Assembly (NCBI GenBank): GCA_951406725.2 | Contig: OX597818.1 | Location: 15,252,001 to 15,316,000 of the forward strand | Length of the DNA stretch: 64,000 bases | Direction: 5' to 3' | Source: Octopus vulgaris | Taxonomy: Eukaryota | Shown: piece by piece, positions 23,323-49,388 of the stretch | Numbering within the stretch: the stretch's first letter is position 1 | How the letters are laid out: each line of letters begins with the position of its first letter | Notes under the pieces: model-generated | Told to the model about the DNA's origin: nothing | The model's input: the letters and a program-made list of their open reading frames with translations, nothing else | The model's database searches: none | Program-made: the position numbers and the translations under genes

Positions 23323-23469
<147 letters not shown>

Positions 23470-23530: not shown

Positions 23531-23568
<38 letters not shown>

Positions 23569-26852: not shown

Positions 26853-26887
26853 ATATATATATATATAACAAATGAAAGACAGAAGAT

Positions 26888-27950: not shown

Positions 27951-28163
27951 TGTATGTATATGTATATATATATGCATATATATGTGTATATATATATATA
28001 TATATATAATATATATATATCAGATTTTTTTGAATATGCTAGACAACTGGTTTAAATTGATGTTAATTGATTGATATCGATTTCTACCTTCATTATTTTA
28101 ATTTTTTAAATTTTATATGTATGTATGTATATTTATATATATGTATATATATATATGTGTGTG

Positions 28164-28198
<35 letters not shown>

Positions 28199-28810
28199 CC
28201 ACTACACACTTTTTTTCTCTCCTTGTTTTTTCTGTGTCCCTTTCTGTAGAAGAGCGTAGGCTGGAAATGTAAAAGACTTTTTCCATTCCTGAGCATTATA
28301 CTAATACATCTGTTTGTTTTGTACACCACCTGTCTTTGTCTTCTGTTTTTTTCGTAAACTCTCCCTATATATATATGTATGTATGTATGTGTATATACAT
28401 ATATATATACATATATATATATATACATATATATATATGTATGTGTGTATATATATATATATGTATATATGTGTATATATATATATATATGTATGTATGT
28501 GTGTATGTATGTATGTATGTATGTGTTTATATATATATATATATGTATGTATGTGTGTATATATATATATGTATATATGTGTATATATATGTATATATAT
28601 ATATGTATATATATATGTAAATATACTCTTGTGGGTTCTAGGTAGTTAGCAGCAGCTAGTTTGATATGAATTCTTGCCTTTGATTGTTTAAGTAGTAGTA
28701 GTAGAGAAAGGATGTTGAGGAGGAGGAGAAGAAGAAGAAGAAGAAGAAAAATCATCATCGTCATCATCATAATAATAATAATAATAATAATAATAATAGT
28801 AATAATAATG

Positions 28811-28858
<48 letters not shown>

Positions 28859-29138
28859 CAGTGGTATGACAGTAGCAGGATGTTGATAGAATCCACTTAA
28901 ATGGTCAAGTGACTTGAAAGTGACTCGTGGATGATAGTAGTGATTAAAATCATTCTGAATAAATTCTTGAGGTGACTGTTTTGAATATATCATTTTTAAT
29001 ATTTGCATGGATGATATTCTAAGGCCCTGGTGACAGTGTCATTTTTTTGCACATGCATTCAAAAGGGGTTGGTATTTTGTGATAAAGAATGACACTTTAC
29101 TAATACACTGGCTACAGGTTGACAACATACCATCACTT

Positions 29139-29179
<41 letters not shown>

Positions 29180-29239
29180 ATATATGTGTGTGTGTGTGGT
29201 GGTTGTCAACACCTTATGCAGAGTTTGACCACTTCCTGT

Positions 29240-29460
29240 ACCTACACCTTATCACCATCAGGGCATCTGATGTGACTTTTTAAACCAGGCAATGTTCTGA
29301 AAAGACACCTACGTAGATTGTACCTCAGATTTCGACCACCAAGAGCTACAGATAAGTTCTGCTCTTTGTGGATCTTGAAATGTCTTTTGAGGCCTCCATT
29401 AGATTTGCAAACCTTCTGGCATACACTGCATTCAAAGGTGTGCACAGACATATTGGCAGA
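29240..29460 (-). mobile_element. RTE-LINE 3' tail fragment with C2H2 finger
   Basis: FECSVCQKVCKSNGGLKRHFKIH...TLPGLKSHIR; no splice context. Confidence 0.5.
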
Positions 29461-29559
29461 ATAGTTGGTTGAGTTTCATTTTCCATGTGTTCACAGATGA
29501 GATTTGAGGTCAGCAAAACACAGGCATGGTCCATCACAGACTGCACACAAAAAGGTCAT

Positions 29560-32316
29560 TGTCATTCACCTTTTCAATTGATACATTCTTCCTTAGATCT
29601 CTTTTGTTAGGTTCTCCTTTTCAACTTGACCGTATCTCTTCTCTGCCACTATTAGCGAGCACAAAATATGAACCACTGGTTTTGCACTTCCGTCTTCATA
29701 TTTATGAAGTAGAACTGCACTTAATCCATGCCCAGAAGCATCGGATGCTACAATGATGTCCATTTTGGGATCATAATGTGCTAATGACAAGTCTGAGATC
29801 AGAATGTTTATTTCTTCAAATGTGTTTTGTCATTTAGTGGACCAATTCCACTTTACCCCTTTTTTTAAATAAGTTGTTCAATGGAGCTCTTAACTTGTGC
29901 ATGTTAGGAATGTAGTTTTGATAATAGTTTGCCAAGAAATATTTGAAAGTTGGAATATTTGTTAGCACAGGCATATTCCTTATTGTATCTGCCCTTAACA
30001 GGTCAGGACATCTACCACTTTTATCAGTTATTTGCCAAAGTACTTAATTTGGAGTAAAAAGAATTCACATTTTTTTCACTCAAAGTGAACCAGTAAACTT
30101 TAATTTTCTTAAACACAGCTTTTATTTGTTCCACATGCTGTTCATGAGAATTACTCTTGATCAAAATATTGTCCAAGTACAGGATTGCAAATTCACAGTC
30201 AAATAACATAATATTCATGATTTGCTGGCATATTGCTGGTGCAGCTTTTAATCCAAAAGTTAATTGTGTGTCCCTGTACAATCCTCTGTATGTATTTATT
30301 GTCAAATACTTTGAGCATTTTTCATTTAATTTTTCTGTAAATCTAATTTGGAAAAAAGTTTTCCACCATTTAACTTTGAAAAATCTCCTCTACAGTCAGG
30401 AGTGGATGGTGGTATGTTTTTAAGCAGTTGTTCCATCCTGTAAAAAAAATTGGCACGCAACCTAATCTTATTATTCTTTTTTTAATACATACCATGGGTG
30501 CTGTCCACTTTGAGTAATCCACCTTTTTGTTGACTCTGCTCTTCTCGAGTCTGTTCAACTCTTCATTTACAGTTTCAATTGCTGCAAATGATACTTTTCT
30601 GTTTGCTTTAAATGCAGGTTCAGTGTTTTCACTTACTTGGAAATAGGCTTCCCCGTCTTTCTACATAGACCTAAATCCTCTGATAACACTTGCGGGAACA
30701 TTTTTTTCAGATTTTTCTTCAGGTCTTCCGAAGACTCGTTTTTAATGGGACAACCATTTATGTTACTGCAGTAAAGATTTATGGGGATTTGCCATAAATC
30801 GAATAGTTCTAACCAATCTATGCCAAACAGATTGATTGTATTACCCACAATGAATAATTTTGTTTCGTGTGTCTCTACTTGAAATGTGACATTGATACAT
30901 GTTTTGCCCATGAAATGTAATTTATCACCCATTACACCACATGCTATTTTCTCTGCTTTACATAATCTCGGTTTACCAATTTTTTCTCAAGTATCCACAT
31001 TTATAATTGAGATGTCACTACCTGTGTCTAACATCATCTATTTTTATGAGCACAAATTTTCTTGTTTTTCCTTTACAATCACTTTCTGCTGAAATCACCT
31101 TAGAACTTTTTGTGCTTGAACCTCATAGTCTTGTTCTACAATGAGAACTCCTGTGTCCCAGCTTCTAACAAATATAGCACTTTTTGTTTTTAAACAAACA
31201 ATACTTTTTGTAGAGTGCCCCCCCCCCCCCCAACCATAACACAGATTGGGACGACACATTTGAATTTTTGGAGAGTCTTTATCTTGTATTTTTTCACACT
31301 ATATTTAAGATTTACCTTAGTTTGACATTCTTCTGTGATAGTTTATAAAGAGAAATCCTGGTTTGCTTGCTTCATTTTCAAGAGAATCCTTGCCCGAATT
31401 TCTCTGTCTTCCAGTGCTATAAGTCCTTGCATGAAGATCAGTGATTTAAACATATCCCGAGTAAGATCCTGGAGTTTGAAATTTTCGCACATATGGTTGA
31501 CTACTCCAGCGTAGGTGATAAAATTATCCTCCTTATTTTTTGTTAAGTTCCAACACCCCATTCTGGTGTTGAATAATGAACATTTATCACAAAAAATTTT
31601 TGAAAGCAGTTTCTGTTTCTTGGAACCCAATCTCGCTTGCCTTTTTGGACAGAACAAAGTTACAGTAATGCTCATGTTTGGCAGGAGCTACCTTGCATAG
31701 TAAAAGCCTTACTTTCTGCTCCTCCAAGCTTGACTTGCACTCATTAAAAATTTCCTTGTATCTTCTATAATATGCATGAAATGTAAAACCCTCCTCCAGA
31801 TTATATGTAAATTCAGAAACTGCATTAGCCTCGCCATCTGGCATAAACAAGCTTTCTGGATTTTCAGACTTTGCCAACTGTAACTCTATTAATTGTTGTT
31901 GTTGTAGTATTTGTTTTTGTAGCTCCTGTAATAATTCCTGTTGCTTCTCTTGAAGCTGTACCACTGTGGTTGATAGGTTTACCATGATGTAGAAATTGTC
32001 AAATAACTAATGTGAGTTTTGAATGATCCTTGTCACCAGTTGTTATATCCTTATGGGTAAACAAATAAACTACAACAGTATAATAACGATACAATCGAAA
32101 ACAACTGGCAGTAACCACACAGAATGTGACGACAATCTTCTAAGAACCAGCAATCCAATATGCTAACTCAAACTGTGAACTTTGATCTCCAACTTTGAAC
32201 CATCAACATATGAACTGTGAAACTAGCACAAATTACCTCACATACTCAGACCACTACTATTTATATGTAGTGGTCCAGTCGATTCTTGCCAGGGAATATT
32301 GTACTCTCGCACAACA
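29560..32316 (-). mobile_element. Decayed Ty3/Gypsy (Mag-like) element: 5' LTR ~32041-32316, PBS, gag, PR, RT, RNase H; integrase and 3' LTR absent
   Basis: TINTYRGLY..LTFGLKAAPAICQQIM..YLDNILI, LAHYDPKMDIIVASDASGHGLSAVL, NLFGIDWL; PBS TGGTGACAAGGAT (32026-32038) 2 nt inside an LTR ending ...AACA. Confidence 0.88.
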
Positions 32317-32882
32317 CCACCCTAAAACAAAACATATTACTAAATAACTGCAATCGTTTTATTTATTTTGACACATAAGAAAGACAACTTCCGGTGTGTT
32401 TTCAGTTTAATTGAAGCTTATCAGCTAAGTTTGGACTTCACTGTAATTATAAAGATGGGACAAACACATAATAAATGTAATGCAATTAGACTCATCTATG
32501 CCTACCAGTGTACATTGTACATTTACTTAACAGTACTCCTTTCACTAGTTTAGCAAGTACAATTAAATTGCTTTCTTGATAAGACCATAATAATATTGAA
32601 ACATATCTGCAGTTTAATTATTCTTGTCAAATAAGTAAAACATATTCAGCCATTCTTTTACTTGTTTCAGTCATATGACTGTGGCCATGCTGGAGCAGCA
32701 CCTTTAGTTGAACAAATCGACCCCAGAAATTATTCTTTGTAAGCCTAGTACTTATTCTATTGGTATATTTTGCTGAACCGCTAAGTTACAGGGATGTAAA
32801 TACATGAACATCAGCTGTCAAGCGATGGCAGGGGGACAAACACAGATGCACAAATACATATATACATATATATACATATACA

Positions 32883-32926
<44 letters not shown>

Positions 32927-33655
32927 ATCCAGACATGAAAACACAAAGAGAAAACACAACAACGTGAGGATGTGGAACAAATATAGTATTATTGGATGCT
33001 CAGGAAGGAAGGGAAGAAGGAAGGTTTAATGTTTCGAGCAGAGCTCTTTGTTGGAAACATAGGAGAAGGAAAGATCCAGAGAAGGGAAGACAGAGGTAAA
33101 AAAATTTCCAACGGTACACACGCAGTATATATTTAACTGGGATAGTTGAGAAAAAGAAAGCAGTGATGTTGATGGTGGCAAGTGCCATGGTATACCCTTG
33201 AGGTTCAAATGCCATAATATAAATGGCAGAATATTTTGAAGGGAATGTGATTAAAGAGGGCAGGTGGCGCAAGAACTGGATATGTATGTTGCGGGGGGTG
33301 GGGTTTACCAGATAGCAAAGATATACAGAGGAACAGGGGTATGATGACAGGATTGGGGAGTGGGAGGTAATCAAAGTACATGAAGCAGAAATGTGATGAA
33401 GAGAAATGTAGAAACATAGTTTGGTTTGCTGCGGTAGAGTGATTAAGAAGTTTTGTTGTTAAGTATGGGTGGAACACACAGTGCTTCTAGAACTCTGTTT
33501 TGCTGATGTGGGCAAGTCTTCTCAAGAAATTCATATCACCAGATATCTCAGTCCATTGTCATTTCCTCCATGAAGCCCAGCTTCTTGAGATCGGTCCATA
33601 CCACTTCACCTCATATCTTCCTGGGTCTTCCTCTTCCATGGGTACCATCCACTTT

Positions 33656-33713
<58 letters not shown>

Positions 33714-33962
33714 TATACAAAAGAAGTCGATGCTAGATGTGTCGAAACAATTGTTGGGATTAATAATATATTCTCGTATATTCCATCTTCTGTCTTTCAT
33801 TTGTTATATACACATGTATATATATATATAAGTAGGTGAATGGATAATTCGGTTGATCGATACCTGGGTAGCAAATTCATGTCAGAAAACACGGTTGAAG
33901 CTACATGTCAAGGGCAGAAACCCCGTGTTCTTGTGTGGAAATTTGTGTGTTTTTTTTATATG

Positions 33963-34081
33963 AATAAATGAAAGAATGGAGTCGAACAAAGATTTTAACA
34001 AAATTCCTTTACTTCGAAACGTGTGTTGAGAGTAAAGGAATTTTGTTAAAATCTTCATTTGACTCCATTCTTTCATTTATT
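33963..34081. repeat. Hairpin with ~51-bp inverted arms and a 17-nt loop
   Basis: aataaatgaaagaatggagtc...aaattcctttact / agtaaaggaattt...gactccattctttcatttatt. Confidence 0.85.
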
Positions 34082-34117
<36 letters not shown>

Positions 34118-34409
34118 TATACATATATACATATTCAGTGGGCTTTTTTTCAGTTTCCGTCTACCAAATCCACTCACAAGGCTTTGGTCAGCCCAAGGCT
34201 ATAGTAGAAAACACTTTCCCAAGGTGGCATGCACTGGGACTGAACCAAGAACCATGTGGTTGGGAAGCAAGCTTCCTACCATTTGCCACTCCATTTACCA
34301 ATCCTAACATTTTTTTACTCTTCCCTGTGTAATTATATCTAATTAGCTTTTTAATGGTCTCTTCATTCAGTATGGCAAAAGGAACATAATTATTGAGTGA
34401 TAATAATAT

Positions 34410-34722
34410 AATTACGGAGATGTACTCGCATAGCAAGTGATTTGATCTGAGATCGTGTGCTGAAACGAAAACAATTGCAGTGTGGAAGGTGTTTGTAAGC
34501 CATTTAAGAAACACACAAAATCCTGTTCGATTCACTTCAACATTTAAGTTTAATTTGTCAAAATATTTACGTCGTTTTAAGATCGTGACCTGTTCACTGA
34601 CAACGGATGCAGCACGGATTTTTGTCAGTGAACAGGTTGCGGTCTTAAAGCGACGAAAATATTTTGACAAATTAAACTTAAATGTTGAAGTGAATCGAAC
34701 GGCTTTTGTGTGTTTCTTAAAT
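34410..34722. mobile_element. Foldback element with ~100-bp inverted arms (34502-34603 / 34622-34722); second copy 36330-36434 + 40697-40838 is split by the LTR element
   Basis: Arms are reverse-complementary by eye; left flank attac(g/a)gagatgtact...gtgtggaaggtgttt is shared by both copies and abuts AT-rich/(TA)n sequence. Confidence 0.88.
34621..34671 (+). ncRNA. Putative minimal hammerhead ribozyme, G3-C8 core variant
   Basis: TTTGTCA-GTGAACA-G-GTTGC-ggtcttaaa-GCGAC-GAAAATATTT-TGACAAA: stem I 7 bp, stem II 5 bp, palindrome AATATT, UUU triplet. Confidence 0.55.
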
Positions 34723-35365
34723 AATATAATTATTACTATATTATTATTACTAGTTTTGTGGTCTATGTATGATGTCACATAGATGTTCATTACATTTATA
34801 TGTGTATAAGTGTGTGAGTGTGGTTGTTTTGTAAAGAGAGTGAGAAAGGCAGATCAAGAGACAGAGAGGGAATGATAGATATGGACAATCAAAGCATCTA
34901 GTAAAAAAGAAAAAGTTGGAGAATCAACTGGACAAAAATTGTGTGATACAAGCTACATTGCTATATATATATATATATTGCTTCCTCCTCCATTTCTTTT
35001 CCCCACACATATTTTCCTCTCTTTCTCTCTCATTTCCTTTATCTCTTTCTGTGGGTTGGGTATTTAATAAGTAGTCTATTGTTTGTTATAAACAATTATA
35101 AAATGAAACCCAATCCCCTAGCTACATCAGTGACTTGGCTCTCATTCTTAACCATAGGCTCTACACGTCATTGTTGTTCCTCCTACACACACACATAATA
35201 CTTACATACATACATACATACATACATATACATACACATTTTAAGTCATTCACTTAAAGAAGCCCTTCATCTGTTTTGGAATCTTTATGCTTGTCCTGCC
35301 AGGACATCCTGTCTGAGGTTTGGTCCAGGTCACAATATATCTCTCTTAATCCCTTGTTTTATCAC

Positions 35366-35915
35366 CAACACCATCACCAACCAATGCCAACACCACCACC
35401 ACCAACACTACCACCACCGCTAACAGCACCACCACCAACACTACCGCCACCACCAACGCCAACAGCACCACTAACACCACCAACACTACCACCACCAATG
35501 CCAACACCACCACCACCAACACTACCACCACCACCAACACCAACAGCACCACTAACACCACCAACACTACCACCAACACCAACACTACCACCACCACCAA
35601 CGCCAACAGCACCACTAACACCACCAACACTACCACCACCAATGCCAACACCACCACCACCACCACAACCAACACTACCACCACCACCAACACCAACAGC
35701 ACCACCAACACCACCAATGCCAACACCACCACCAACACCACCAACACTACCACCACCAATGCCAACACCACCACCACCACCACCACCAACACTATCACCA
35801 CCACCAATGCCAACAGCACCACTAACACCACCAACACTACCACCACCAATGCCAACACCACCACCAACACCACCACCACCACTAACAACACCACTACCAA
35901 CGACAACACCACTCC
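35366..35915. repeat. Degenerate (CCA/CAA/CTA)n triplet satellite
   Basis: Recurring ccaccaccaacacta / ccaatgccaaca / acagcaccacta sub-units. Confidence 0.9.
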
Positions 35916-36300
35916 CCATTACTAACCATGGAACAAGTGGTTACTTGATCCTGACTAGACAGTAGCTAATTTCCTTCAAAGTTACCTTAAATAAGTGAAT
36001 ATATTGGATGATGACAATTCTAGACATATTTTTTAAAACATTTCTTTTTTGACTTGTTTCAGTCATTTGACGGCAGCCATTCTGGTGCATTGCCGTTCGT
36101 CAAACAAATCGACCCCAGGACTTATTCTTTGTAAGCCTAGTACGTATTCTATCAGTCCCTTTTTGCTGAACCACTAAGTGACAGGGACATAAACACACCA
36201 ACATTGGTTGTCAGATGATAGTGGAAGGATAAACACAGACATAAGAAACAAATATATATATATATATATACAAGATAAGAAAACAACCCCTATCTCAATT

Positions 36301-36333
<33 letters not shown>

Positions 36334-36434
36334 CAGAGATGTACTTGCGTAGCAAGTGGCCTGATCTGAGACCATGTGCCGAAACAAAAACAATTGTAGT
36401 GTGGAAGGTGTTTATAAGCCATTTAAAAACACAC

Positions 36435-36709
36435 TGTGATAGATGTGGTGAAAAGGAGCGTAACAGAACAAGGAAAAGAACTAGAAGTGTAATTTGGTCT
36501 TACCTGTAGAGATGAAGCCGGATTCGCCTTGAGCCAACTTGCTAGCGTCTTGTCGTCTTGGCGTCGTTCTCGTGTGTCTGTCCTCGTCGATGCCGCACGT
36601 GCGTTCTGTCGCTGACTTCCGCTTCCGCCGGCGCATGCGCCCTGCGAGACCTGCAAGACCCACTTCCGCTCCCTCCCTCTCTGTCACACTCCCTCATCAC
36701 CACACCACA
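36435..36709 (-). repeat. 3' LTR, preceded by PPT AGGGGG-CG
   Basis: Direct repeat of 40415-40691; + strand cgccccct at 36710-36717. Confidence 0.95.
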
Positions 36710-36744
36710 CGCCCCCTGATCTATAGATCACTGAACCGGTTTCC

Positions 36745-39651
36745 TCACTCGCTCCCGCACCTGAAACTGGTTTCGTAGTCAGCCAACCAGGGAGGAGGGT
36801 GCCGCTCCCTCTGTGGTCGCAGTGCGACCCTAGGACTTGTTTCTGGCGTGTTGCTGCCGACCTCGTCATCCTGTCTGTTGTTATCGTCTTGCCCACTGTT
36901 GCTCGTCCCATCCTCCGGGGCATGGACAATCCTCCGTATGTCCAAAACGTGGCGTGGCATGCCATCTACCGAGATGTTGTTCTTTGAATTTACGGAGGTT
37001 ATTGTCCCCTTTCCCCATTGCGATGTACACCGTGCGTTCGGGGGTTTCACCCAGACTTCCTCCCCGACCTGCACGAAGGCGTGCTCTTCCTCTGCCCCGG
37101 GTCGCATTGATGCAGTACACGGATGCCTCCACTCGTACCTGAATATTGCCCTGTGTGGCACCGACTCCTCGGCCTGTCCTGATCTGGGCGACATGTTGTA
37201 CCAAAACACGGCCTCGACTGGTGAAATGTGACCCCTCTCAGCCATGGCCTTGATGGTACGATGATGCCTTTCCACCACCCCGTTTCCACTTGGCCGGTAT
37301 GCCGCCCTGAAGAAGCGGTTGACCTTCCACTCATCAAGCATTTCTCTCAGCGCCTCCGAGCGAAATGCAGTGCCGTTGTCCAGAAGCAGTTCATCCACGG
37401 GGCCTCGTTCCAGGAATATCTCGTTCAGCACTTTCGCAATTTCTTCTGCGGTTCCTGACCTCATCTCCCTCCATATGGCGAACCGCCCCGGTCCGCAGTC
37501 AACCATTGAGAGGTATGTCCCCTGCCGGTAGTGTGTTATGTCCACCGCCAGTCGTCTCCAGTCCTGGTCCACTGGAATACTTCCCGCTTCATGCACGACC
37601 GGAGCAGGGTCGATGGACTGGCACCTGTCGCAACTGCTAACCACTCTCCGCACGCTCTGTCTTGTTACGTCGGAGTCGACTTTTCTGGCCAGGAACAACG
37701 TCCTGTCCACACCCATGTGATGCATGGTGTGCAGTCTCCGCAACTCCGAGTCGCTCAGATGGCATACTGCAGCTACATCCTGCTTCGCGTCCTCTGGCAC
37801 TTGCAACCAGGCTCGCTTAACCCTGGTCAGGACGTCTGCCCTGTTCTTCTCGGAAGGCACAAAGATCACGCTCAGCTTCAGATTGAACTCAGTGGTCAGT
37901 TCACGCAGTATCCCCAATCGACGCTTTACCAGCATCTCTGCAGCCCCTTTGGTCCGCACCCTCCGCTCATCGGTGATGACTGCCGTCGCCCAACCAAGCA
38001 CAGTGGCTGAATCAGTCCTGACTTCTATGGTGTGCAACCCCCACTTCAAGGCTAGGTTCACCCCCTTCAGCACGGCTTCCAACTCCGCCACGTTGATGTG
38101 ACTGCAGTCATCCATCTTCCTGAGCCAGGCTGCATCTTCCACCGTGACACCTCCCACTTCCAAGACAATCCCTATTGCGATGCTACTGGCGTCACACCAT
38201 ACGATCCCGCTCTTTGATTTGGGAACGTACCAGCTGCCCCTCACCGGGTCCTCTGCTCTTACTCTGACCAGGACTTCCTGCATCATGTCGATCGTCCTCT
38301 CCCCCACTTTGTCATTCCACTTCACTCCTTCGGCTCGTCTCTTGATGAAGCTGCATGCTGTCCGGAGCCAGCCTGCAATCGGGTAGTGTCCCACCAGCTT
38401 CCCACACACAGAGAACAGCTCCCGTCTACTCATGCTGGCGCCCAGTTCAGGGATCTCATTCCCTCGCCGGAACACCAGGGCGCCGGCTTTGTCTCTCCAT
38501 AGCTTGAGGCCCAGTGCAGCACCTCCCTCCATAGCCTCTGGCGGCTTGGCGATCAGTCCAAAACTCTTCAGGTGGCCTATGACCTCCGTTGCTGGTATCA
38601 CGGTTTCATCCACCAGAATGTCGTCGATGTATGAATTGGTGGCCCTTTTTACTCTGTCCACCTTCCCCAGGACGGTCTTGAGAATTGTTGCCATAATCTT
38701 CGGAGCTGAATTCAGCCCGAATCCCAACCTGGTCAGACAGTACGTCCGGCCCCTATACCTGACGAGCTGGTACCTCCATAGTTTCTCAGCCACATGAACC
38801 TGAAGGTATGCCGACTTCAAATCGACAATCGTGGAGGCCCCCGCCGTCTGCCTCCACTCTCGCAAGGTGTCTCCGCAGACATCCGTGGCCTCGCCGCCTG
38901 TATGACACGACACGTGGTCATTCAGCTCTCGGAAGTCGAGCACTGGCCTGACCTTACGCTTTGTGGGCTGTATCACCGCCATCAGTGGCAGGACTCCGCT
39001 CTCTTCTTTTTCCCAGGGGATCAGTATGCCCTCCTTAATCCACCGCTCCACCTCCCCCTCGAACTCACTTCTGGCATCTCCTTTTAGAGTATGCTGATAG
39101 CAGCCCACTTTGTTCTTTAACATCGGGGGCTCTCCCTTCCAGTGCCACTCCACTGTCCACCTCTCGCCATCAAAGACAGCCCGAAAATCCTGGTCTTCAA
39201 TGGTGTGCGCCGCATCCATTTCCTCACGGTCGTCGTCGGTGCGTGGTGTCGCCCTACACGGCTTCCCTGCTAGCCCAAACGTTACGCCAGCCTCGTTGAC
39301 GGTAACACCTCCCAGACGGGTGATCGCATCCATCCCCATCACCACGTCGATCTCGTCCACCAAGTGACCGACCACAATCGCTCGCAACGTCAGCTGCAGT
39401 CCCTGCACCACGATCTGCGCATCCGTAACCCCTTCGCAGTGCACTTCTCTTCCGTCGACTGCCCTGACACTGCTTCCTCCACTCCACGTCTCTGCCACTT
39501 CTGTGGTCATCAGGGTCGTCGTACAGCCCGTGTCCACCAGGGCTCGCGACATCTTCCCCTTCACCAGAATGTCGACCACAGGTAACGATGAGAAACGCGC
39601 CGCTACTAATCCAAAGGGACAACTACCGGCGCAGTAGTCTCCCGCGGTCCG
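36745..39651 (-). CDS. pol: Pol (aspartic protease, RT, RNase H, integrase), entered by -1 frameshift
   Basis: LVDTGC; RPVLDFRELN, DLKSAYLQ, LGFGLNSAP, YIDD; CDASS, INVAELEAV, RTDS, NRADVL; HTMHH...CDRC, VDITH, LDNG, VERHH; no stops. Confidence 0.95.
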   Translation of the reverse strand, partial: RTAGDYCAGSCPFGLVAARFSSLPVVDILVKGKMSRALVDTGCTTTLMTTEVAETWSGGSSVRAVDGREVHCEGVTDAQIVVQGLQLTLRAIVVGHLVDEIDVVMGMDAITRLGGVTVNEAGVTFGLAGKPCRATPRTDDDREEMDAAHTIEDQDFRAVFDGERWTVEWHWKGEPPMLKNKVGCYQHTLKGDARSEFEGEVERWIKEGILIPWEKEESGVLPLMAVIQPTKRKVRPVLDFRELNDHVSCHTGGEATDVCGDTLREWRQTAGASTIVDLKSAYLQVHVAEKLWRYQLVRYRGRTYCLTRLGFGLNSAPKIMATILKTVLGKVDRVKRATNSYIDDILVDETVIPATEVIGHLKSFGLIAKPPEAMEGGAALGLKLWRDKAGALVFRRGNEIPELGASMSRRELFSVCGKLVGHYPIAGWLRTACSFIKRRAEGVKWNDKVGERTIDMMQEVLVRVRAEDPVRGSWYVPKSKSGIVWCDASSIAIGIVLEVGGVTVEDAAWLRKMDDCSHINVAELEAVLKGVNLALKWGLHTIEVRTDSATVLGWATAVITDERRVRTKGAAEMLVKRRLGILRELTTEFNLKLSVIFVPSEKNRADVLTRVKRAWLQVPEDAKQDVAAVCHLSDSELRRLHTMHHMGVDRTLFLARKVDSDVTRQSVRRVVSSCDRCQSIDPAPVVHEAGSIPVDQDWRRLAVDITHYRQGTYLSMVDCGPGRFAIWREMRSGTAEEIAKVLNEIFLERGPVDELLLDNGTAFRSEALREMLDEWKVNRFFRAAYRPSGNGVVERHHRTIKAMAERGHISPVEAVFWYNMSPRSGQAEESVPHRAIFRYEWRHPCTASMRPGAEEEHAFVQVGEEVWVKPPNARCTSQWGKGTITSVNSKNNISVDGMPRHVLDIRRIVHAPEDGTSNSGQDDNNRQDDEVGSNTPETSPRVALRPQRERHPPPWLADYETSFRCGSE

Positions 39652-39657
39652 TTTCCC
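39596..39657 (-). other. -1 ribosomal frameshift signal (G_GGA_AAC plus H-type pseudoknot)
   Basis: Heptamer is in gag frame at 39657-39651; 7-nt spacer; stem 1 GGGAGACTAC/GTAGTTGTCCC; stem 2 GCGCCG/CGGCGC; pol is in the -1 frame. Confidence 0.85.
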
Positions 39658-40361
39658 CGCAGACACTCGCTGGCCACATGCCCCGGCTCTCGGCACCGGT
39701 AGCAAATCACCTCCGGCTTGGGCGACGCGCAGTCACGGACCATGTGTGGGCCCTGGCACCGGAAACACTGTCCCTTAAACGACCGCACGCGTTCTTTCCC
39801 CAGCCCCTCTCCGTTGCTCCTAGCTGGGCCACTTTTCGACGTTGCAGTCGCTGCTACCGACGTCGACCTGCTGCACGACACCAGTACACGTGCCCGCGAT
39901 ATAATCTCGCCCATCGGCATCGAACGCACGTTCGGGAGCTTCTGTAGCTCGACCGACATGATGTCGGGAAAGCCGGTCACGAACGCTAACCTGACCGTGC
40001 GTTCTAGCGACTCTCCCTCATATCCCGCAAGTTTTGCCAACCTTCTAAGCTCGCCGGCGAACACGTCCACCTGCTGTCCTGTCCACCTCATCCTACCCAG
40101 TCGAGTGTACGCTTCAAACATTCCTTCCGCGAAGGCCTCCATAAGTCGGATCTCCACCTTGTCCGCGCTGCGTTGGTCCGCTTCCTCCATCTCCAGATAT
40201 AACGCCAACGCCGGGCCATCCAAATACAACGGCATAAAACTAGCCAGGTCAGCTATGCCGTGTAGCTTCGCCACCAACTTCACCCTCCTCAACCAAGCGA
40301 CCACGTCGGTGTCGCCGCAAAACGGTGTTATAGGGTCGCGTGAAATCATAGCAGTCTGCAT
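39606..40361 (-). CDS. gag: Gag, 251 aa, two C-terminal CCHC-type zinc knuckles
   Basis: ATG 54 nt after the 5' LTR; CFRCQGPHMVRDC and CYRCREPGHVASEC. Confidence 0.92.
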   Translation of the reverse strand: MQTAMISRDPITPFCGDTDVVAWLRRVKLVAKLHGIADLASFMPLYLDGPALALYLEMEEADQRSADKVEIRLMEAFAEGMFEAYTRLGRMRWTGQQVDVFAGELRRLAKLAGYEGESLERTVRLAFVTGFPDIMSVELQKLPNVRSMPMGEIISRARVLVSCSRSTSVAATATSKSGPARSNGEGLGKERVRSFKGQCFRCQGPHMVRDCASPKPEVICYRCREPGHVASECLRGNGPRETTAPVVVPLD

Positions 40362-40402
40362 AATTTTTATTTTTTATTTTCACGAAACCGAGTGATTATT
40401 TT

Positions 40403-40414
40403 GCCGAAATAGCT
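40403..40414 (-). promoter_or_regulatory. Non-canonical primer-binding site complementary to nt 1-12 of tRNA-Phe(GAA)
   Basis: + strand GCCGAAATAGCT equals the conserved 5' end of metazoan tRNA-Phe (GCCGAAATAGCTCAG...); directly abuts the 5' LTR. Confidence 0.85.
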
Positions 40415-40691
40415 TGTGATAGATGTGGTGAAAAGGAGCGTAACAGAACAAGGAAAAGAACTAGAAGTGTAATTTGGTCTTACCTGTAGAGATGAAGCCG
40501 GATTCGCCTTGAGCCAACTTGCTAGCGTCTTGTCGTCTTGGCGTCGTTCTCGTGTCTGACTGTCCTCGTCGATGCCGCACGTGCGTTCTGTCGCTGACTT
40601 CCGCTTCCGCCGGCGCATGCGCCCTGCGAGACCTGCAAGACCCACTTCCGCTCCCTCCCTCTCTGTCACACTCCCTCATCACCACACCACA
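40415..40691 (-). repeat. 5' LTR
   Basis: Element sense TGTGGTG...TATCACA; upstream of PBS and gag. Confidence 0.95.
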
Positions 40692-41694
40692 CACACTAAA
40701 ACCATTAGATTCACTTCAGCATTTAAATTTAATTTGCTTAAATATTTTCATTGTTTTGAGACTGTGACCTGATCCCTGACAAAATTCCATGCTGCATCAG
40801 AATTTTGTCAGAGATAGGTCGTGGTCTCAAAGCAGTAAACAAATAAGAAACTGAAGGAAACCCACTGTATAAGTGTGTGTGTGTGTGTGTATGCGCACAT
40901 GTGCACATGTGTAATGATGACTGTTCATTTAGAAAATATATGCAAAACTTATATTAGTAGTATGGGTATGTTTATATTGGTATATATATTCATTCTGCCT
41001 TGCTCTTTAGTCCGCTCTACTGAGAACCAATGGCATTTGGAATTTAACCCTGCAACAGACTAGCATACAGTTAAGAGAGAAGTTTTTACAGTCAGCTGCT
41101 TAAACTCAATAAAATCTGGATAAGCTTTGACCAAATGAGCCTGTAGGCTCAAGAAAGACTCTTAACCTCTTGACCCCTAAGTACATTGCTTAAACTCCTA
41201 CAGGTACTTTTTTTCCTCTGCTCAGAAACAGACTATGTACAAATTCGTTCTTTGCAACTCCTGAAGCTATTTTCTGACAGGTGGGGTGGCGAGTCAGGAA
41301 ATTTTCATACAGCTGGAGGCACCAATCAAAGCGAGGGACCCGAAATGATAAGGTTGAGAAACGCTGTTATAGATTATGTCTAGCCGAAAACAATCACAGC
41401 CACATCATCCAAACAGACCAGGTGAAACCAGGCTTAGTTGCTAGTTATATATCAACTGAACAAATGGCTCATGTGATATTCTTAAATCTGATTCTGAAAT
41501 TATATATTTATTTGTCAAAAAACCCTTAAATGGATGATCATGAGCCAAATATTCTAAGCACTAAGCCACAAGCCTTCACATGACTTATTGCAGTGGTGGT
41601 GAAAGTGATAATGGTTATAATGATAATAATGATAATGATAAAAAGGCATAGATTTAAAATGGAATTAGGTACATCTGGGATAACAAATAATTAA

Positions 41695-41913
41695 ACTTTT
41701 CATTACCATATTTATTTTGAGATGCTCTGTGTTTCTTTCAATTAATTTTAAGTATAACAAAGAATTTAGTAAAACAACTTAGTTATCATTAAGCCAGCGT
41801 GATGAACATAAATTGTGACTAAGATTTCGTAGAAGATTTTTATTCAGCACTTATGAAAAGACATTTGTTCTACAGAGCCAGAGGCAGTTTCAGCTGGGTT
41901 GGTATCAAAAGGG
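41695..41913. mobile_element. piggyBac-like MITE with TTAA TSD; second copy 45476-45684
   Basis: TTAA-(a/c)c(c/t)ttt...aaa(g)gg-TTAA; the two copies share internal sequence. Confidence 0.75.
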
Positions 41914-42204
41914 TTAAAGAAGCATTGAATTTCAGCAATGAGTAGTAAATCAGTAATCCCAGTAGACACTTTTGTGCAATGTGGTAATGAATATTGAAAT
42001 TAGTTGCAATGAAACAAAATTTGAAAAGTATTTGTTCTCAGGTGCTGGCATGGTTGTGTAGTAAGAAGCTTGCTTCCAAAAGACAGCATTCCAGACTCAG
42101 TCCCATTGTGTGGCACCTTGTGCATGTCTCCTACTATAGCCTCGTGCTGACCAAAGTTTTGTGAGTGAAAGAAGCCCACTGTATATCGCACCGAAATATA
42201 TATA

Positions 42205-42415
42205 TATGTGACCCCGTGTGTACCAATGGCGATTTTTCCCTCTGTCTTCCCTTCTTTGGATCTTTCCTTTTCCTATGTTTCTGACGAAGAGCTCTGCTCG
42301 AAATGTTAAACCCTCCTTCATTCCTTCTTTCCTGAGCGTCCAATAATACTATACTTGTTCCACGTCCTCACGTTGTTGTGTTTTCTCTTTGTGTTTTCAT
42401 GTTTGGATTAACTAC
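42205..42415 (+). mobile_element. Short PLE pseudo-LTR-like element with hammerhead motif at 42277-42311 (copy on minus strand ~32922-33125)
   Basis: GTTT-CTGACGA-A-GAGC-tct-GCTC-GAAA-TGTT-AAAC; (TA)n flanks. Confidence 0.6.
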
Positions 42416-42433
42416 ATATATGTGTGTGTGTGA

Positions 42434-42466
<33 letters not shown>

Positions 42467-42917
42467 GTTGTGTTTGTGTGTGTGTTTGTATGTGCGTGTC
42501 TTTTATATGTTTGTCCTCCATCACTGTTTGACAACCGGTGTTTGTGTGTTTACATCTCTGTAACTTAGCAGTTTGGCAAAAGAACCAAACTTAAGAAATG
42601 AATAAGTACTGAGGGTGATTTATTTGACTAAAAATTCTTCAAGGCAGTGCCCCAGCATGGCTGCACTCATATGACTGAAACTAGTGAAAGAAGAAAAAGA
42701 TAGGAGTTTGGCATCAATGGCAAAAGCATTAAAAATCCTAGGCTAAAAACAACATTTGAGTTGAAGTGTAGGCAAAGACATGATTATATGTAAGAAAAAA
42801 TACTTGAGGATATTTCTTCCAGCTCTTTATATTCAGATTTCAAATCTCACCAGTCAAGCTGAACTTCTGTGACTGCAGTCAATGGAAATTTCTAATACCT
42901 TGTTAGATTTCTTCCCT

Positions 42918-42957
<40 letters not shown>

Positions 42958-43235
42958 TCTCTCTCTCTCTTTCTCTTCCCTCTCTCTTCCTCCCCCCTCT
43001 CTCCCTCTCTCTCCTAGGTATATATTTTTTAAAATTTGTCTCTACCAACTTTCACAACACAAGGAGAAAATTTACTTCAAAAACTATTTGGTTTCTTGGT
43101 TCTATGATATTCTGATAATGGTGTCAATGGTGGTGGTGGTGGTGGTGGTAATGGTGGTTATGATGATGATGGGGAGGAAGAAGGAAAAGGTGGTGATGGG
43201 ATGATGATGATGCTGGTCATGATGATGAGGAGGCA

Positions 43236-43266
<31 letters not shown>

Positions 43267-44084
43267 CAACAATCTTTGGGTGCCTTTGAATTTTCAAAAG
43301 ATTTGTTTTCACTTACAATATGAAAGTTGAGAGAACCTGCTAATAATCTTGCTTGTTTATGCCATAAAGAAAATATATGTCAACATGTCAAAGTGACAAA
43401 ATCTGAAATTGTTGAATGTTGAACATAGAAATACTTGCAAGTTGCCGAGGCCATCACATGTATGGTCATATATGCGTTGCTGTATGTTGCATGTTTTGTC
43501 AAACAGCTACAGCAGAATAATAATTAATGATTTCGATTATGTCTGTCAAGGTTAGAACATTAAAAAATGGTTGTTAAAATTGTATGTTGAATCCATTTCA
43601 TATGGTAAATAATCCATTTATTAAACATTCTCTAATCCATCAATTATGGTAAATAATGCAATGTCTGAAAGCTGTGTTTAACAGTGGAGACAAACTGTTG
43701 CATGTGGTTTATCATTTCTAGATGTTAACATAATTTTATTGTATTCCAAGAGAAAGGAGGATATATAGGAGACTGCTTTTCTTTTTATTGATCAGTTTTT
43801 GTCACTGTTTTAATACATTTAAGTTTCTACGGATGAATTATGTGGTTGTTGTTTTAGTAGTCTCAAACAGCTCTGATCAAGCTGACCTATCATCAAAGGC
43901 ATTCCAGCCATGGCCATCCTGTCTTTTTAAAGTAGTTTGAATTAAATAAGATAATATGTGTGGTTCACTTTTATAAAATCACAGTATAAAATATAAGGGA
44001 AATTTGATTGCTATTTCTTGCAAGTTGTTGGTCCTCATAGATGTTTGTCTTGTTGTTAGTTTATATTATATCATGATTCTGCAT

Positions 44085-44203
44085 GCTTATGGCCAAATCA
44101 TGTTAAATGCACTGGTTCTTGACTAATCACCAAAGTTAAGCAATGTCGAGCCTAGTTAGTACCTAGATGGGTGACTGCTTGGGAAAATTGGGGGCTGTAA
44201 GCA
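44085..44203 (+). pseudogene. Full-length 5S rRNA pseudogene
   Basis: GCTTATGGCC...AGTTAAGCAA (box A)...GTTAGTACCTAGATGGGTGAC (box C)...GCTGTAAGC; 119 nt, collinear with animal 5S; most CpGs mutated. Confidence 0.9.
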
Positions 44204-44953
44204 TCTCGCATTTTAAGGTGGTGAGCTGGCAGAATTGTTAGCACACCAGGCAAAATGCCTAGTGGTATTTTGTTCATCTTTACATTCTGAGTTCAATTGC
44301 CACTGGATCACCTTCATTTTTCATCCTTTCAGGGACAGTAAATAAGTACCAGCTGAACTCGGGAGCTGATGTAATCAACTTAGCTCTTCCTCTTAAATTG
44401 CTGGCCTTGAGCCAAAATTTAAAACCAATATTATGATTCAGTACAACTGGTTAGAACAGGAGACAAATATATTACTGCTGTTGTTGTCGTTGCTGTTGTC
44501 TTTATGTACATCATTTTACATTTTGAGTTCAGTCTTGTCAAAGCTGACTTTGCCTTTCATCTTTCCAAAATCGATAAAATATGTACCATTGAAATACTGA
44601 GGTATGTGTGTAGTGAGGTTTTGATATAATATATTGACCTTTCCAAAACTGCTAGCATTATGCTTCTATTACAAATTATTGAGTGTGGTGGGTTGGTAGA
44701 ATTGTCTAAGTTTTGAAAACAAAACCTTTTTGGTACTGTAGATTCCAATCTTGTCAAGGTCAACTTCTTTCATTCTTACTTGGTCAATAAAATGAAGTAG
44801 CGATTCATATAATTAATTATCAATATTGGTTTTTTTCCCCTCCTGCCAAATTTTTGGGCTTTTGTTTATGTTAGAAATAGGTATTTTGGGGACAGTGGAT
44901 GAGTGGAATCATTAAATGTTGGAAAAAATGCTTTGAGATGCTTGTTCTGACTA

Positions 44954-46251
44954 TAAGGTGCATTCCAGAAGTTTAAGACATTTTAGGAGAGGTAGTTATA
45001 CCTGTCCTGAATTATTGTAATTTTAATATATATCATTATACATCAAATATGTTGACCTGCCAACTTTGCTACCTCAGATTGAAGGAAATGGCTGTAACAG
45101 CTCTTTGAACACATTCTTATTTCTTTATTGCCCACAAGGAGCTAAACATAGAGAGGACAGACAAGGGGATTAAGTCGATTACATCAACCCCAGTGCGTAA
45201 CTGGTACTTAATTTATCAACCCCGAAAGGATGAAATATGGCTACATTTCTGCCAGCTCGCCACCTTCATGTGTTCTTTGAACACATTCTACTAAACACTA
45301 CTTGTCACAGCTGACTAGTTTATAGAATGTAGTCTGGATGTGAAAATAATTTGGAAGCTCAATGGGCAACAAAATTTTGTGTTAAACTAGGCAAAAAACT
45401 ACAGAAATTAATGAAATGCTCCATACAGCTTATGGATTTCTTTTTCTTTTCTTTTGGCTGGCACAAGAGGTTTAACCCTTTCATTACTGTATTTATTTTG
45501 AGATGCTCTGTGTTTCTTTCAATTACTTCAGATATAACAAAGAATTTAGTAAAATAACTTAGCTAGAGTTAGGAACATAAATTGTGACTAAGGTTTGGTG
45601 GAAGATTTTTATTCAAAACTTATAACAACAAGACATTTGTACTCAGAGCCAGAGCCGGTTTCAGCCAGGATGGTAACGAAAAGGTTAAGGACAGTAGAAA
45701 GGAGGTGAGAACCGATGAGAAGTGTGGAAGGGAGTGTAACATCAAAACATCAGAGCTATTTGATAAAATTTGCAATTTTATGGATGAAGATCGTCACATG
45801 TCTATAAAGACAATAAGCTTACAACTTAGAGTTGGTGTGGTAACTGTGCACAGAATTATTCATGAAGATCTGAACATGTCCAAAGTTTGTTCCCAGAGTG
45901 CTCAATGACAGGTATCCTGGTAACCAACTACTTGACAGAGATGGGCATCAAAGCTGTACCTTACTCTCCCTACAGTCCAGATTTTGCTCCTTGTGACTTG
46001 ACTTTTGGTTGTTTTCCAATGTGAAGGAGAACTGCAGGAGCAGTCATTTAGAAGATGAGGGAGGCTGTGGCAAGGGTCCTAGATGCCTTAGCTTTGGAGG
46101 ACTTTTATGGGGCCTTCACAAAGAGACTGGAGCACGCCAAGTGCATGACAGTCAGAGAAGCTTACTTTGAAGGAGATTACAGTTTTGTACTCCTTTGAAA
46201 TTAATAAATGTCTCTCCTGAAAAATTCTGAAAACTTCTGAAATACACCTTG
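44954..46251 (+). mobile_element. Decayed mariner with nested SINE fragment and piggyBac-like MITE
   Basis: TIRs (T/C)AAGGTG(C/T)ATT(C/T)CAGAAGTTT, TA flanks; IKFCVKLGK-like start, WHKRF|KDSRKEV, VHRIIHEDLNMSKV, PYSPDFAPCD. Confidence 0.85.
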
Positions 46252-46809
46252 TATTTACCTTCTGAGTTCAAATCTTTCCATGGTCAACTTTGCCTTTCAT
46301 CTTGTTTTTTTTCTGGTTTTGTACCTATATTGGAAGCAATTATAATTCTTAATGAGCTGCCACAATTGTTAGAGCATCTGAAAATTGTTTTGTGTGATTT
46401 ATTTTAACATTTTATATTCTGGGTTCAACTCTTACCAAGGCCAATTTAGCTTTCATCTTCTTAGGGCCAAGGAGGCAGAAACTAGAAGATAGAAAATTGG
46501 AGTCAATAGTATCAACTAGCCCCCTCCACTTAAAATTATTGACCTTGTTCCTAAATCAGAAGCCATTATTATTATCAATAATAAGGTTGTGAGCTGGCAG
46601 AACCATTAGCATGTTGGTCAAAATGCTTAGCACCAGTTTGTTTGTCTTTATGTTCTGAGTTTAAATTCTACCAAGGTTAACTTTGCTTTTCATTCTTTTG
46701 GGCTTGATAATATAAGTATCAGTTCAGTTCTGAGGTTGATGTAATTGGCTTATCCAATCCCTCAAAATTGCTGACCTTGTGCTAAAATTTGAAACCATTA
46801 TTATTATTA

Positions 46810-46880
<71 letters not shown>

Positions 46881-47036
46881 ATTATTTATTTGTGTATAAC
46901 TTCTGGATGAGTTACCTCGGTCCTATATAGTCTTAACAAAAAATGAAGTAGGCTGTCATGTAATATTTGAACCTGTGGAAGGCACACTAGATGCCGAAAT
47001 ATCATTCAACCAATTTCACATGATATGGCACTCTTC

Positions 47037-47084
<48 letters not shown>

Positions 47085-47636
47085 GAGTGAGAGAGCAGTG
47101 CATGCCATCAAAGTGACACTGGGGTAAAATATAAGAAGCCCAGTATACCCATCATGACCACCTGTCTGATAAGGGTACACCAGGCACATGCATCACAACC
47201 ATATGTGCATGACATGGTGATCTCATATCAAGATAAACAGTGCATGACCTTGCAGGTGGGGCTCAGAATTTTTGCTTCAGGTCAAGTAACCCATCCCACT
47301 CAAAAGGTCACTGAATAAGGTTTGTTTAAGGATGTTGAATGAAACACCTATGTTTCCAAGGGTGAATTATCCAAACCCCAGAGAATTCCTCTCAACACAT
47401 GGCTATGATGCTCCCCCACTACTTCTTCTCATGATCAGAGATGCACACATCATCAGCCACCAAGGGACATGTTCAACTAGTTTAGGTCAATCAACTGAGA
47501 AGCAAATCTGTGGTATTGAGCCGAATATTTTCTGTAGCCCATCTTTTATACCAAGTCAAAACATGTACATGATGACACTTCCAATCAGTTAAGATCAGAA
47601 GTCATGAGAGCCACTGCCTTGTCCTGCATCAGGGCA

Positions 47637-47640
<4 letters not shown>
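47085..47640. mobile_element. ~555-bp non-coding insert embedded in an (ATT)n microsatellite
   Basis: Sharp boundaries with pure (TTA)n on both sides; higher GC than the flanks. Confidence 0.5.
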
Positions 47641-47672
<32 letters not shown>

Positions 47673-47893
47673 CATTATTATTATTAGGTAGTGAGCTGCC
47701 AGCAGAATCGTTAGCACTCCTGGCAAAATGCTTAGTGGTATGTTGTCCATCTTTATGGCCTGAGTTCAAATTCTGCTGAGGTCAACTCTGCCTTTTATCC
47801 TTTTGGGGTCAATAAAACAAGTACCAGTTTGAACACTGGGGTCAATGTAATTGATTTCTCTGAACTTGCTGGCCTTGCACCAAAATTCGAAAC

Positions 47894-47948
<55 letters not shown>

Positions 47949-49388
47949 ATTGCTATTATTATTATTCAGTCTCACTGTGTAACACACTGGGCAAGTCCTT
48001 TTTATTAGGTTGGCTAAAACATTCATTTGGCTTTTTAAGCAAAAATAAGACACACGTTTTAAACATAAAGTGATTTGTTCAATCAATGATATAATCAATA
48101 TTTCATTCCAGTATGTTCTGCCATTATTCCCTGCTAGTTAACTGTGACCCTGCCAGCGCTGGTACCACTTAAAAGGCATCCAGTCCACACTGTAAAGTGG
48201 TTGGCATTTGGAAGGGCATCCAACTGTAAAAACCATGCCAAAACTGAACTCGCCTGTAAAAAGCATTCAGCCCACCCTGCAGGATGGTTGATGTTAGGAA
48301 GGGCATCAAGCCATAAAAACAGACACAGAAATATGGTGCAGGCTTCTGCTTAGCCAGCTCCTGTCAAACCGTTCAACCTATGCCAGCATGGAAGGAAGAG
48401 GTTAAATGATGATGAATGATGTCGAACTGTGCTTCTGGAATTTGTTAAATGAATAATTAATTTTTATGAAACGAAATTTTCCAGAAATATTGACAGGATT
48501 TGAAAAGAACCAAAATAAAATAAGAATATCAGAGGTGAATTTGTTGATATGGTTGTTTGATACGTTACAGACCTTAGACCATACTTACATAATCCCTGCT
48601 ATTTCTGGCATGCTAAATAACTATGTAGGTGTGCTACCTTTGAGTTTATCTAAAAGACAGAGATTAACACTGTGATGAAATAATGCAAGAAATATTTACT
48701 GAGCGGATAATTACTGTTATAAGAATAAAGGAGACAAAGGAAGATTGGATGTAACATATCAGAAAAATTACTCATATTGGGACCAATAGGTAAATACTGG
48801 CTTCAAATTTTGGTGCAAGGCCAGGAATTTCAGGGGAGGTGACTAGTTGATTACATCAACCCTAGTGTTCAACTGGTACTTATTTTATTGACCCCAAAAG
48901 GATAAAAGGCAAAGTCAACCTTGGTGGAATTTGAACTCAGAAAGTATAGAAAGATGAAATACTGCTAAGCATTTTGCCAAATGTATTAATAATTTGGCCA
49001 GATCACTGCCTTAAAATGTGTGAATATTATTAACCAGCTAGCAGAAAACTGCCTGGAGGTAGGTCTTTCTGCTTGTATATATATAGCTTACTTTTGAGAT
49101 ATCTCTGGTTAAAATTACATGACCATTCATAGCTTTTTGTGGGGAAACAACAGGGGAAGAAATCATTTAACCTATATTGACAACTTGCTTCAGGACAGTG
49201 GAATGCCAAATGTTGATGAATTAAATATATGCATGGAGAACCATGATGGATGGCATACTCATGTGAAATCACTGAAGTGTTCAGCAGGACAACCAAACTA
49301 ACTAACCGACTAATAGCTTTTGGGAGAATGATTGTGAAATAATATTGACTATCCTGAAGTATTTCATGATTTTGGTATATCATTGTAG

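Follow-up and report, generated by a model that had tools for sequence, protein, structure and literature searches.

How does a long terminal repeat (LTR) retrotransposon start reverse transcription when no complement of a tRNA 3′ end follows its 5′ LTR? The question arises at a locus of Octopus vulgaris. We analyzed a 64,000-nucleotide (nt) stretch of this genome (GCA_951406725.2, OX597818.1 15,252,001-15,316,000), called the window below, in whose positions all coordinates are given. The window carries an LTR element of 4257 bp on the minus strand (36435-40691). A sequence-only reading of the window had described the element and overlooked its non-canonical primer-binding site (PBS), which is its main feature. 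We find that the element is a young, intact copy from a widespread lineage, and that its PBS is the complement of nt 1-12 of a host tRNA. Going by sequence, the element is probably primed by a 12-nt 5′ fragment of this tRNA and not by the 3′ CCA end. The PBS and the two LTRs lie as follows.

36435..36709, minus strand: 3′ LTR, 275 nt, TG..CA
40403..40414, minus strand: PBS, 12 nt, exact complement of nt 1-12 of the host tRNA-Phe(GAA)
40415..40691, minus strand: 5′ LTR, 277 nt, TG..CA

The PBS begins at the first base after the 5′ LTR without a spacer, and there is no TGG there. Comparing the whole element (4257 nt) with tRNA-Phe plus CCA, we found a single match of at least 9 nt, which joins element nt 278-289 to tRNA nt 1-12. 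The duplex of the PBS with tRNA nt 1-12 has an energy of −18.7 kcal/mol, against −7.3 kcal/mol for the tRNA 3′ end. The LTR contains no 6-nt complement to tRNA-Phe, and tRNA nt 13-15 are unpaired with the LTR end. The tRNA-Phe start has 94 exact sites in the genome, and all four that were tested are tRNA-Phe(GAA). Across 32 loci of the family in the same genome, the exact 12-mer follows the LTR in 27 and a one-base variant in three; one locus has neither, and one has no LTR pair. The pattern of LTR junction plus 12-mer occurs 400 times in the genome versus 54 times for its reversed control. In a search that tolerated any two mismatches, nearly all changes at LTR junctions were confined to PBS positions 7-8, opposite tRNA nt 5-6. 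One rare PBS variant equals the start of a tRNA-Lys of the O. vulgaris genome (one of three sites). Five ordinary Gypsy elements of the host, taken as controls, have TGG sites in all five cases. Elsewhere in the genome, about 45 tRNA-Phe-start motifs are spaced regularly at 200 nt (C18:30147732-30157146), a sequence pattern that is probably a tandem tRNA-Phe array.

Performing a search for Pol relatives at E 0.001 (7992 candidates scored), we obtained 612, the best 120 of which share 49-65% identity and all carry DUF7047. The named hosts are Argonauta, Petrolisthes, Oratosquilla and Nymphon, that is, cephalopods, crustaceans and a sea spider. For the primer site we used 75 metagenome loci, mostly at 40-56% Pol identity, of which 31 cover the region upstream of gag. 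The pattern AGCTAT..CG[GT]C was matched by 29 of these 31 loci, with 0.46 expected by chance, and the remaining two show CA|AGCTAT followed by a variant. Position 13, which is past tRNA nt 1, varies freely (A in 13, C in 9, T in 4 and G in 2 of 28 loci), and the LTR-end CA before the PBS is kept in 27 of 28. The conservation thus ends at position 12, exactly where the tRNA ends. In a tally of 78 loci, near-duplicates included, AGCTAT is followed by TTCGGC (13), CGCGGC (11), CACGGC (6), CCCGGC (4), CCGGGC (2), CACGCG (2) or TTCGTC (1), and the region or the motif is absent from 39. The variant switches 9 times over 30 labelled tree tips, with one double change between close sisters. We also located the complements of three PBS variants at 80 loci of viral contigs; they lay inside a tRNA called by ARAGORN in 20, at nt 1 in 19. 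Among 15 relatives with a full LTR, the termini are TG..CA in 14 and TG..TA in one. The primer site is conserved and, apparently, hitherto undescribed: a literature search, with Repbase Reports, most subscription journals and supplements outside its scope, gave no account of an nt 1-12 PBS, of DUF7047 or of this lineage.

Two known ways of priming are ruled out here. A canonical site for a tRNA 3′ end would need the TGG that is missing after the LTR, both in the element and in all 15 relatives with a full LTR. Self-priming fails since none of 16 LTRs, those of the 15 relatives included, has a self-complement longer than 6 nt. Plant LTR elements are described as using three primer types, the whole tRNA, the half tRNA and the self-primer (PMC6317226). 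If the conserved nt 1-12 match truly acts as a primer, it would be a fourth type, fitting none of the three set out there. Tf1/sushi elements are alike in that 11-12 nt of an RNA 5′ end pair with the PBS and are cut to a short primer, as we propose here (PMC7175516, PMC6317226); the 5′ end of Tf1 belongs to its own transcript, whereas here it belongs to a host tRNA. In the half-tRNA Copia elements Osser, Bryco and Bianca, the primer is the 5′ piece of a cut tRNA, again as proposed here, but the Copia cut is in the anticodon stem, whereas pairing with nt 1-12 would place it in the D stem (PMC6317226). The domain order of the element also differs from that of Copia. If our reading is true, the lineage would escape silencing by 3′ tRNA-derived fragments, which acts via the canonical PBS (PMC7472051), and it could meet 5′ fragments instead. 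PBS finders based on tRNA 3′ ends likely miss or mislabel the lineage, and so, likely, do the degenerate primers RMPFGL/LTTDAS of a crustacean survey (PMC3587641).

The rest of the element was examined for the parts that a priming cycle would use. In the following lines, the Pol domains are protease (PR), reverse transcriptase (RT), RNase H (RH) and integrase (IN).

36430..36434: target-site duplication CACAC, left copy, 5 bp
36710..36716, minus strand: polypurine tract (PPT), a short G-tract adjoining the 3′ LTR
36717..36730, minus strand: hairpin or palindrome directly before the PPT, kept with compensatory changes
36745..39732, minus strand: pol frame, 995 aa stop-to-stop, domains PR-RT-RH-IN
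37795..38232, minus strand: RNase H domain, with D513, E549, D573 and D632 invariant in 42 of 42 members
39591..39642, minus strand: stem-loop predicted downstream of the slip site, −23.6 kcal/mol
39606..40361, minus strand: gag, 251 aa, two CX2CX4HX4C knuckles
39651..39657, minus strand: G GGA AAC, putative slippery heptamer for the −1 shift, read in the gag frame
40692..40696: target-site duplication CACAC, right copy, 5 bp

The element is an LTR retrotransposon: LTRs, target duplication, gag, PR, RT, RH, DDE integrase, a PBS in its proper position and a PPT are all present. The earlier description of an intact 4257-bp copy with open gag and pol and a CACAC duplication holds in each part. 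Both frames are open, pol overlaps gag in the −1 frame, and a slip at G GGA AAC gives a product of exactly 1205 aa. A GGGAAAY heptamer occupies the slip position in 29 of 31 loci with an LTR pair in this genome, in both of its families. Many relatives (P0056, P0059, P0062, P0077 and others) have Gag and Pol in a single frame of 1160-1240 aa; the frameshift is therefore not shared by the whole family. Pol consists of a protease (DTG), an RT (YIDD, with a DUF7047 thumb), a single RNase H, an HHCC and DDE integrase and a C-terminal beta domain, in the Gypsy-like order that had been noticed. The capsid part of Gag gave no match in Pfam or in a PDB sequence search. The LTRs differ, as had been seen, at one patch only (gtgtgtctg vs gtgtctgactg), through a single substitution and a gap of 2 nt. 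This patch (36565-36585, 40545-40565) is variable among other copies too, with several 2-base variants, so that within the family it is a hot spot of mutation. The claim of a GC- and CpG-rich element was correct as well; its GC is 0.567 with a CpG observed/expected ratio of 0.91, versus 0.383/0.31 and 0.356/0.27 in the flanks. The label 'unusually compact' was only partly apt: the element is shorter than five ordinary host Gypsy elements (4517-5764 bp), but only mildly. The hairpin before the PPT has at least 5 bp in 23 of 26 loci with nine arm sequences, compared with a mean of 1.0 and a maximum of 5 in shuffles. An Rfam search returned nothing above threshold.

We then asked where the lineage stands. 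The sequence-only reading had called the RT divergent and its motifs atypical. The motifs P-L-M-A-V, K-V-R-P-V-L-D and L-G-F-G-L-x-x-A-P are indeed as described, and they are family-wide, being found in 36-42 of 42 members at each column. In a quick RT-RNase H tree of 56 rows, the 46 lineage rows split from 10 host Gypsy rows on a branch of 4.2 changes/site; this tree is unrooted, its Gypsy rows represent three groups, it lacks reference clades as well as rows for BEL, DIRS and Troyka, and it leaves out 14 redundant own-genome copies and loci without an unbroken RT-RNase H frame. So far as it can be tested, the divergence of the RT is thus supported. In Pfam, every one of the 42 members hits DUF7047 and RVT_3, while RT_RNaseH and RT_RNaseH_2 are hit by no member at E 0.01. 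The RNase H scores 0.3 bits against a profile of four Gypsy sequences from the same genome. No RT outside the lineage passed E 0.01 among 4527 long candidates. The short RT-to-RNase H distance that had been claimed was not found: 146 aa separate YxDD from the first Asp of the RNase H, and the corresponding Gypsy values are 149, 153 and 153 aa, taken from the 3 of 10 Gypsy rows in which the regular expression found the motif. At the position taken as equivalent to GPY/F in the integrase, those letters are missing and W-x-x-G-[VTR]-[VI] stands there.

Searching 1.84 billion representatives for the RT-RNase H, we obtained 503 clusters at E 1e-30, these being protein clusters at 50% identity; at the weaker thresholds of 1e-10 and 1e-3 the counts rise to 1737 and 3534, of which the share of the lineage is uncertain. 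The atlas matches are unnamed RT clusters, and Petrolisthes was the sole name that a look-up of clusters yielded. Foldseek with the whole Pol and PDB sequence searches led to retroviral proteins, reflecting the content of these libraries. The relatives make up a large, apparently unnamed and probably deep lineage of LTR retrotransposons. A distant member (L091; P0256) has a single Gag-Pol of 1814 aa with 27% identity and an hhalign probability of 99.8, and with it the lineage reaches much deeper. In Nymphon striatum, a lineage RT-RNase H (P0123, 54% identity) is annotated within a GCN2 kinase, probably as a gene-model fusion over an intronic copy. Three contigs of bacterial metagenome-assembled genomes (L313, L314, L315) carry lineage elements, which are probably eukaryotic contamination. 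No relative was found in viral contigs.

Could this simply be a fast-evolving Gypsy clade that is already catalogued (MolGy1-16 or a Repbase 'Gypsy' group), with only the primer site overlooked or noted elsewhere? We consider this a serious possibility, though we would sooner bet against it. The element shares with Ty3/Gypsy the order PR-RT-RH-IN, a single RNase H without a tether, the CCHC knuckles (CX2CX4HX4C), the TG..CA ends, the 5-bp duplication and a predicted −1 frameshift, besides the Gypsy-like RT-RNase H spacing. A lineage profile scores Gypsy RTs at up to 24 bits and a decayed BEL relic at 2.8 bits, DUF7047 is already in Pfam, and the MolGy clades are presented as defined by tree alone (PMC6238403). 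The catalogued-clade explanation has to face an RNase H that misses the Gypsy profiles, the very long RT branch, the non-canonical PBS, the failure of any other RT to reach E 0.01, and the missing GPY/F letters; GPF/Y in the integrase C-terminus is given as a Gypsy hallmark that some clades have lost (PMC12440569). Troyka elements resemble ours in being compact, deep-branching and of Gypsy order, without tether or GPF/Y, and in living in aquatic animals (PMC12440569). Their CG..CG ends, 3-bp duplication and CX2CX8-10HX4C finger (PMC12440569) set them apart from an element with TG..CA ends, a 5-bp duplication and CX2CX4HX4C knuckles. Retroviridae, Odin and Loki have a tether and a second RNase H, and retroviruses have env (PMC9040795), whereas here a single RNase H follows the thumb and there is no room for env. 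Saci2/lennie, with a 4-bp duplication, a single Gag-Pol ORF and tRNA-Leu/Gly/Lys primers (PMC12471100), does not fit either.

The RNase H was modelled with a pLDDT of 90. Its best structural match is the Halobacterium enzyme (Z 17.3, rmsd 1.9, 123 residues aligned), followed by LC11 (Z 14.8) and Sulfolobus (Z 14.7); with Ty3 the values are Z 8.8 and 89 aligned residues. Top matches in Foldseek come from the same archaeal-type RNase H1 group. In the model, then, the fold is closest to archaeal-type RNase H1. An archaeal-type RNase H is also found in the aRNH-bearing Tat elements and in plant L1, and RVT_3 is the family matched by all our members; in those elements it is an additional RNase H and has a catalytic Arg, whereas here it is the sole RNase H and the Arg is missing (PMC4408406). 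The RT-RNase H module aligns end to end with the RTs of CaMV, MMLV and Ty3, which indicates one RNase H and no tether.

From these data we propose the following cycle. A −1 slip at G GGA AAC would, with high probability, give Gag-Pol, and Gag with Gag-Pol would package the element RNA together with tRNA-Phe. Inside the particle, the PBS would invade the acceptor and D stems of the tRNA and pair with nt 1-12, a step of which we are about equally confident. The tRNA would probably be cut after U12, so that the fragment gains a 3′-OH and serves as primer. The nuclease may be the RNase H of the element itself, cutting the RNA/RNA duplex in a Tf1-like manner; this part, drawn by analogy, is tentative. 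Two published reports favor it: in Tf1, cleavage by RNase H releases a primer of 11 nt (PMC7175516), and the Sulfolobus enzyme, from the nearest fold group, cuts double-stranded RNA (PMC9719913). RT would then extend the 12-mer straight into the LTR, and the cDNA end would rather likely be flush at CA, since the PBS adjoins the LTR without a spacer. Plus-strand priming would occur at the short G-tract; that the conserved hairpin positions it is, in our estimate, an even call. The DDE integrase would insert the cDNA with no obvious sequence preference and a 5-bp duplication.

Several points weigh against this proposal. Priming, with its primer, its cut tRNA and its strong-stop cDNA, is deduced from the sequence. 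The AGCTAT regular expression itself fixes most positions of the motif, and PBS bases 1-6 lie opposite tRNA nt 7-12, a stretch that many tRNAs have in common. The PBS variants were compared with tRNAs other than those of the metagenome loci's own hosts; 60 of the 80 viral-contig sites are outside any called tRNA, and the called tRNAs, mostly for Thr and Ile, belong to phages or bacteria. The Ty3 comparison of the RNase H used a partial chain, a handicap for Ty3, and over the whole RT-RNase H module CaMV, MMLV and Ty3 come out about equal (Z 21.2, 21.0 and 20.4). The archaeal-type RNase H is defined by an active-site Arg (PMC4408406); the column taken as equivalent, judging by motif spacing, holds S in 29 and T in 13 of 42 members. 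As the Arg is absent, the cutting of double-stranded RNA cannot be transferred from the fold. The hairpin loci were hand-picked with a regular expression containing the letters of the 3′ arm, and their LTR starts were set by eye. The energy of the stem-loop at the slip site stands without a shuffle control.

The missing Arg raises the question of whether the host makes the primer. A pre-existing 5′ tRNA fragment, cut and trimmed by host nucleases without involvement of the element's RNase H, is a minority explanation in our view, yet a live one. Such 5′ fragments are a known class (PMC7472051), and half-tRNA primers are reported to arise by anticodon-stem cleavage (PMC6317226). The fragment-primer step itself is common to this explanation and to the cycle proposed above. 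What speaks against a host fragment is its length: as the LTR end offers no pairing to nt 13-15, it must end exactly at nt 12, an end that a duplex-guided cut yields by itself. It is quite improbable that the 12-mer instead serves tRNA packaging, dimerization or translation control and that priming takes place elsewhere, from a protein or another RNA end. In several relatives an ATG lies within 13-16 nt of the PBS start, and an effect on translation is conceivable; against this, the 12-mer is exactly at the PBS position and flush with the LTR, both in the two families of the host and in all 31 relatives, and no canonical or self-priming site is present. Least probable of all is that RT starts from the U12 2′-OH of a whole tRNA paired over nt 1-12, a branched primer like the one that retrons form from a 2′-OH, which would account for the exact match flush at the LTR and make a nuclease unnecessary, but we know of no LTR-type RT that primes from a 2′-OH, and this RT folds like those of CaMV, MMLV and Ty3.

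A bolder version of the fragment-primer reading was also weighed. In it, the lineage (503 clusters) would be a superfamily-level branch of LTR elements with a fourth primer type, its own archaeal-like RNase H would cut the PBS-bound tRNA after nt 12, and its RT-RNase H may link the LTR elements with DDE integrase to DIRS or BEL. We regard this as doubtful. The HIN-x-x-E-L helix of the lineage presumably resembles DIRS, and P-L-M-A-V and V-P-S-x-x-N-x-A-D presumably resemble BEL/Pao. DIRS membership is ruled out by true LTRs, a protease and a DDE integrase, as DIRS elements have a tyrosine recombinase and no protease. A search for tyrosine recombinases at E 1e-8 found none; a DIRS motif had 9 matches in the genome, all by chance, and none in viral contigs. 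Neither Peptidase_A17 nor a BEL gag was matched in Pfam, at E 1 for the window proteins and E 0.01 for the 42 members. There is one weak BEL/Pao lead in the atlas (0.87), and the host genome has two decayed BEL relics.

At the locus itself, the insertion lies within a gene.

22122..49388, plus strand: putative CFAP44 intron, 27.3 kb, holding the element, with GT at 22122 and AG at 49388

The placement in a CFAP44 intron, already suggested by the sequence-only reading, agrees with exon matches on both sides (18477-18692, residues 1446-1504; 49389-49590, residues 1547-1613). The element is antisense to CFAP44. As a single insertion it is ordinary, an antisense intronic copy for which no effect on CFAP44 is shown. 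It sits in a very high-copy repeat (36331-36434 plus 40697-40860), and an uninterrupted, partly palindromic paralogue of this repeat is found 2 kb upstream (34412-34712). The family shows no preference for this target, as none of 31 other copies has the repeat in its flanks. Four DNA runs contain joints that skip the element, an exact 4262-nt skip included, at a flank depth of ~10,000-350,000. These joints may stem from paralogues, given the high copy number of the target and the uninterrupted paralogue at 34412-34651, and we do not take them as evidence for the polymorphism that had been suggested as possible.

We finally checked the age and activity of the family in this genome. The DNA search (31 of 790 candidates scored) gave 34 matches, the majority of almost full length and 89-100% identical; over the copies, the nucleotide identity grades from 100% to ~85%. 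The RT search (131 of 1283 candidates scored) gave a continuous series from 100% to ~83% aa identity and a second family at ~77%. All of the best 12 copies have a 5-bp duplication, six have identical LTRs and nine have both ORFs open. Over 32 loci, the duplication is 5 bp in 25, 4 bp in 2 and not found in 5. One copy is identical across Pol residues 51-931, and pN/pS against the 12 of 14 copies having synonymous differences is 0.17-0.62. The earlier view of a young and potentially active element is supported by the identical LTR pairs, the open frames and these pN/pS values. The suggestion of a recent invader is not supported: the graded identities, the second family and a copy in a second organism (a 3322-nt contig, 39 differences, 98.8% identical) point to a long-resident family. 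Activity of the family is also recent, and the element is one of dozens of its young copies. An old horizontal transfer of the family is conceivable. The element is covered by four runs presumed to be RNA, in one of them by a single contig of 4014 nt; these runs have zero depth on the unique flank 40827-41300, a flank that is covered in each of the four DNA runs. As their RNA status is a guess, we take this as a hint of transcription of the family, not of this copy. Several copies of both families are clustered within ~20-30 kb at C18:83.96-83.99 Mb and C27:25.57-25.59 Mb, where they are possibly nested or resemble silencing clusters.

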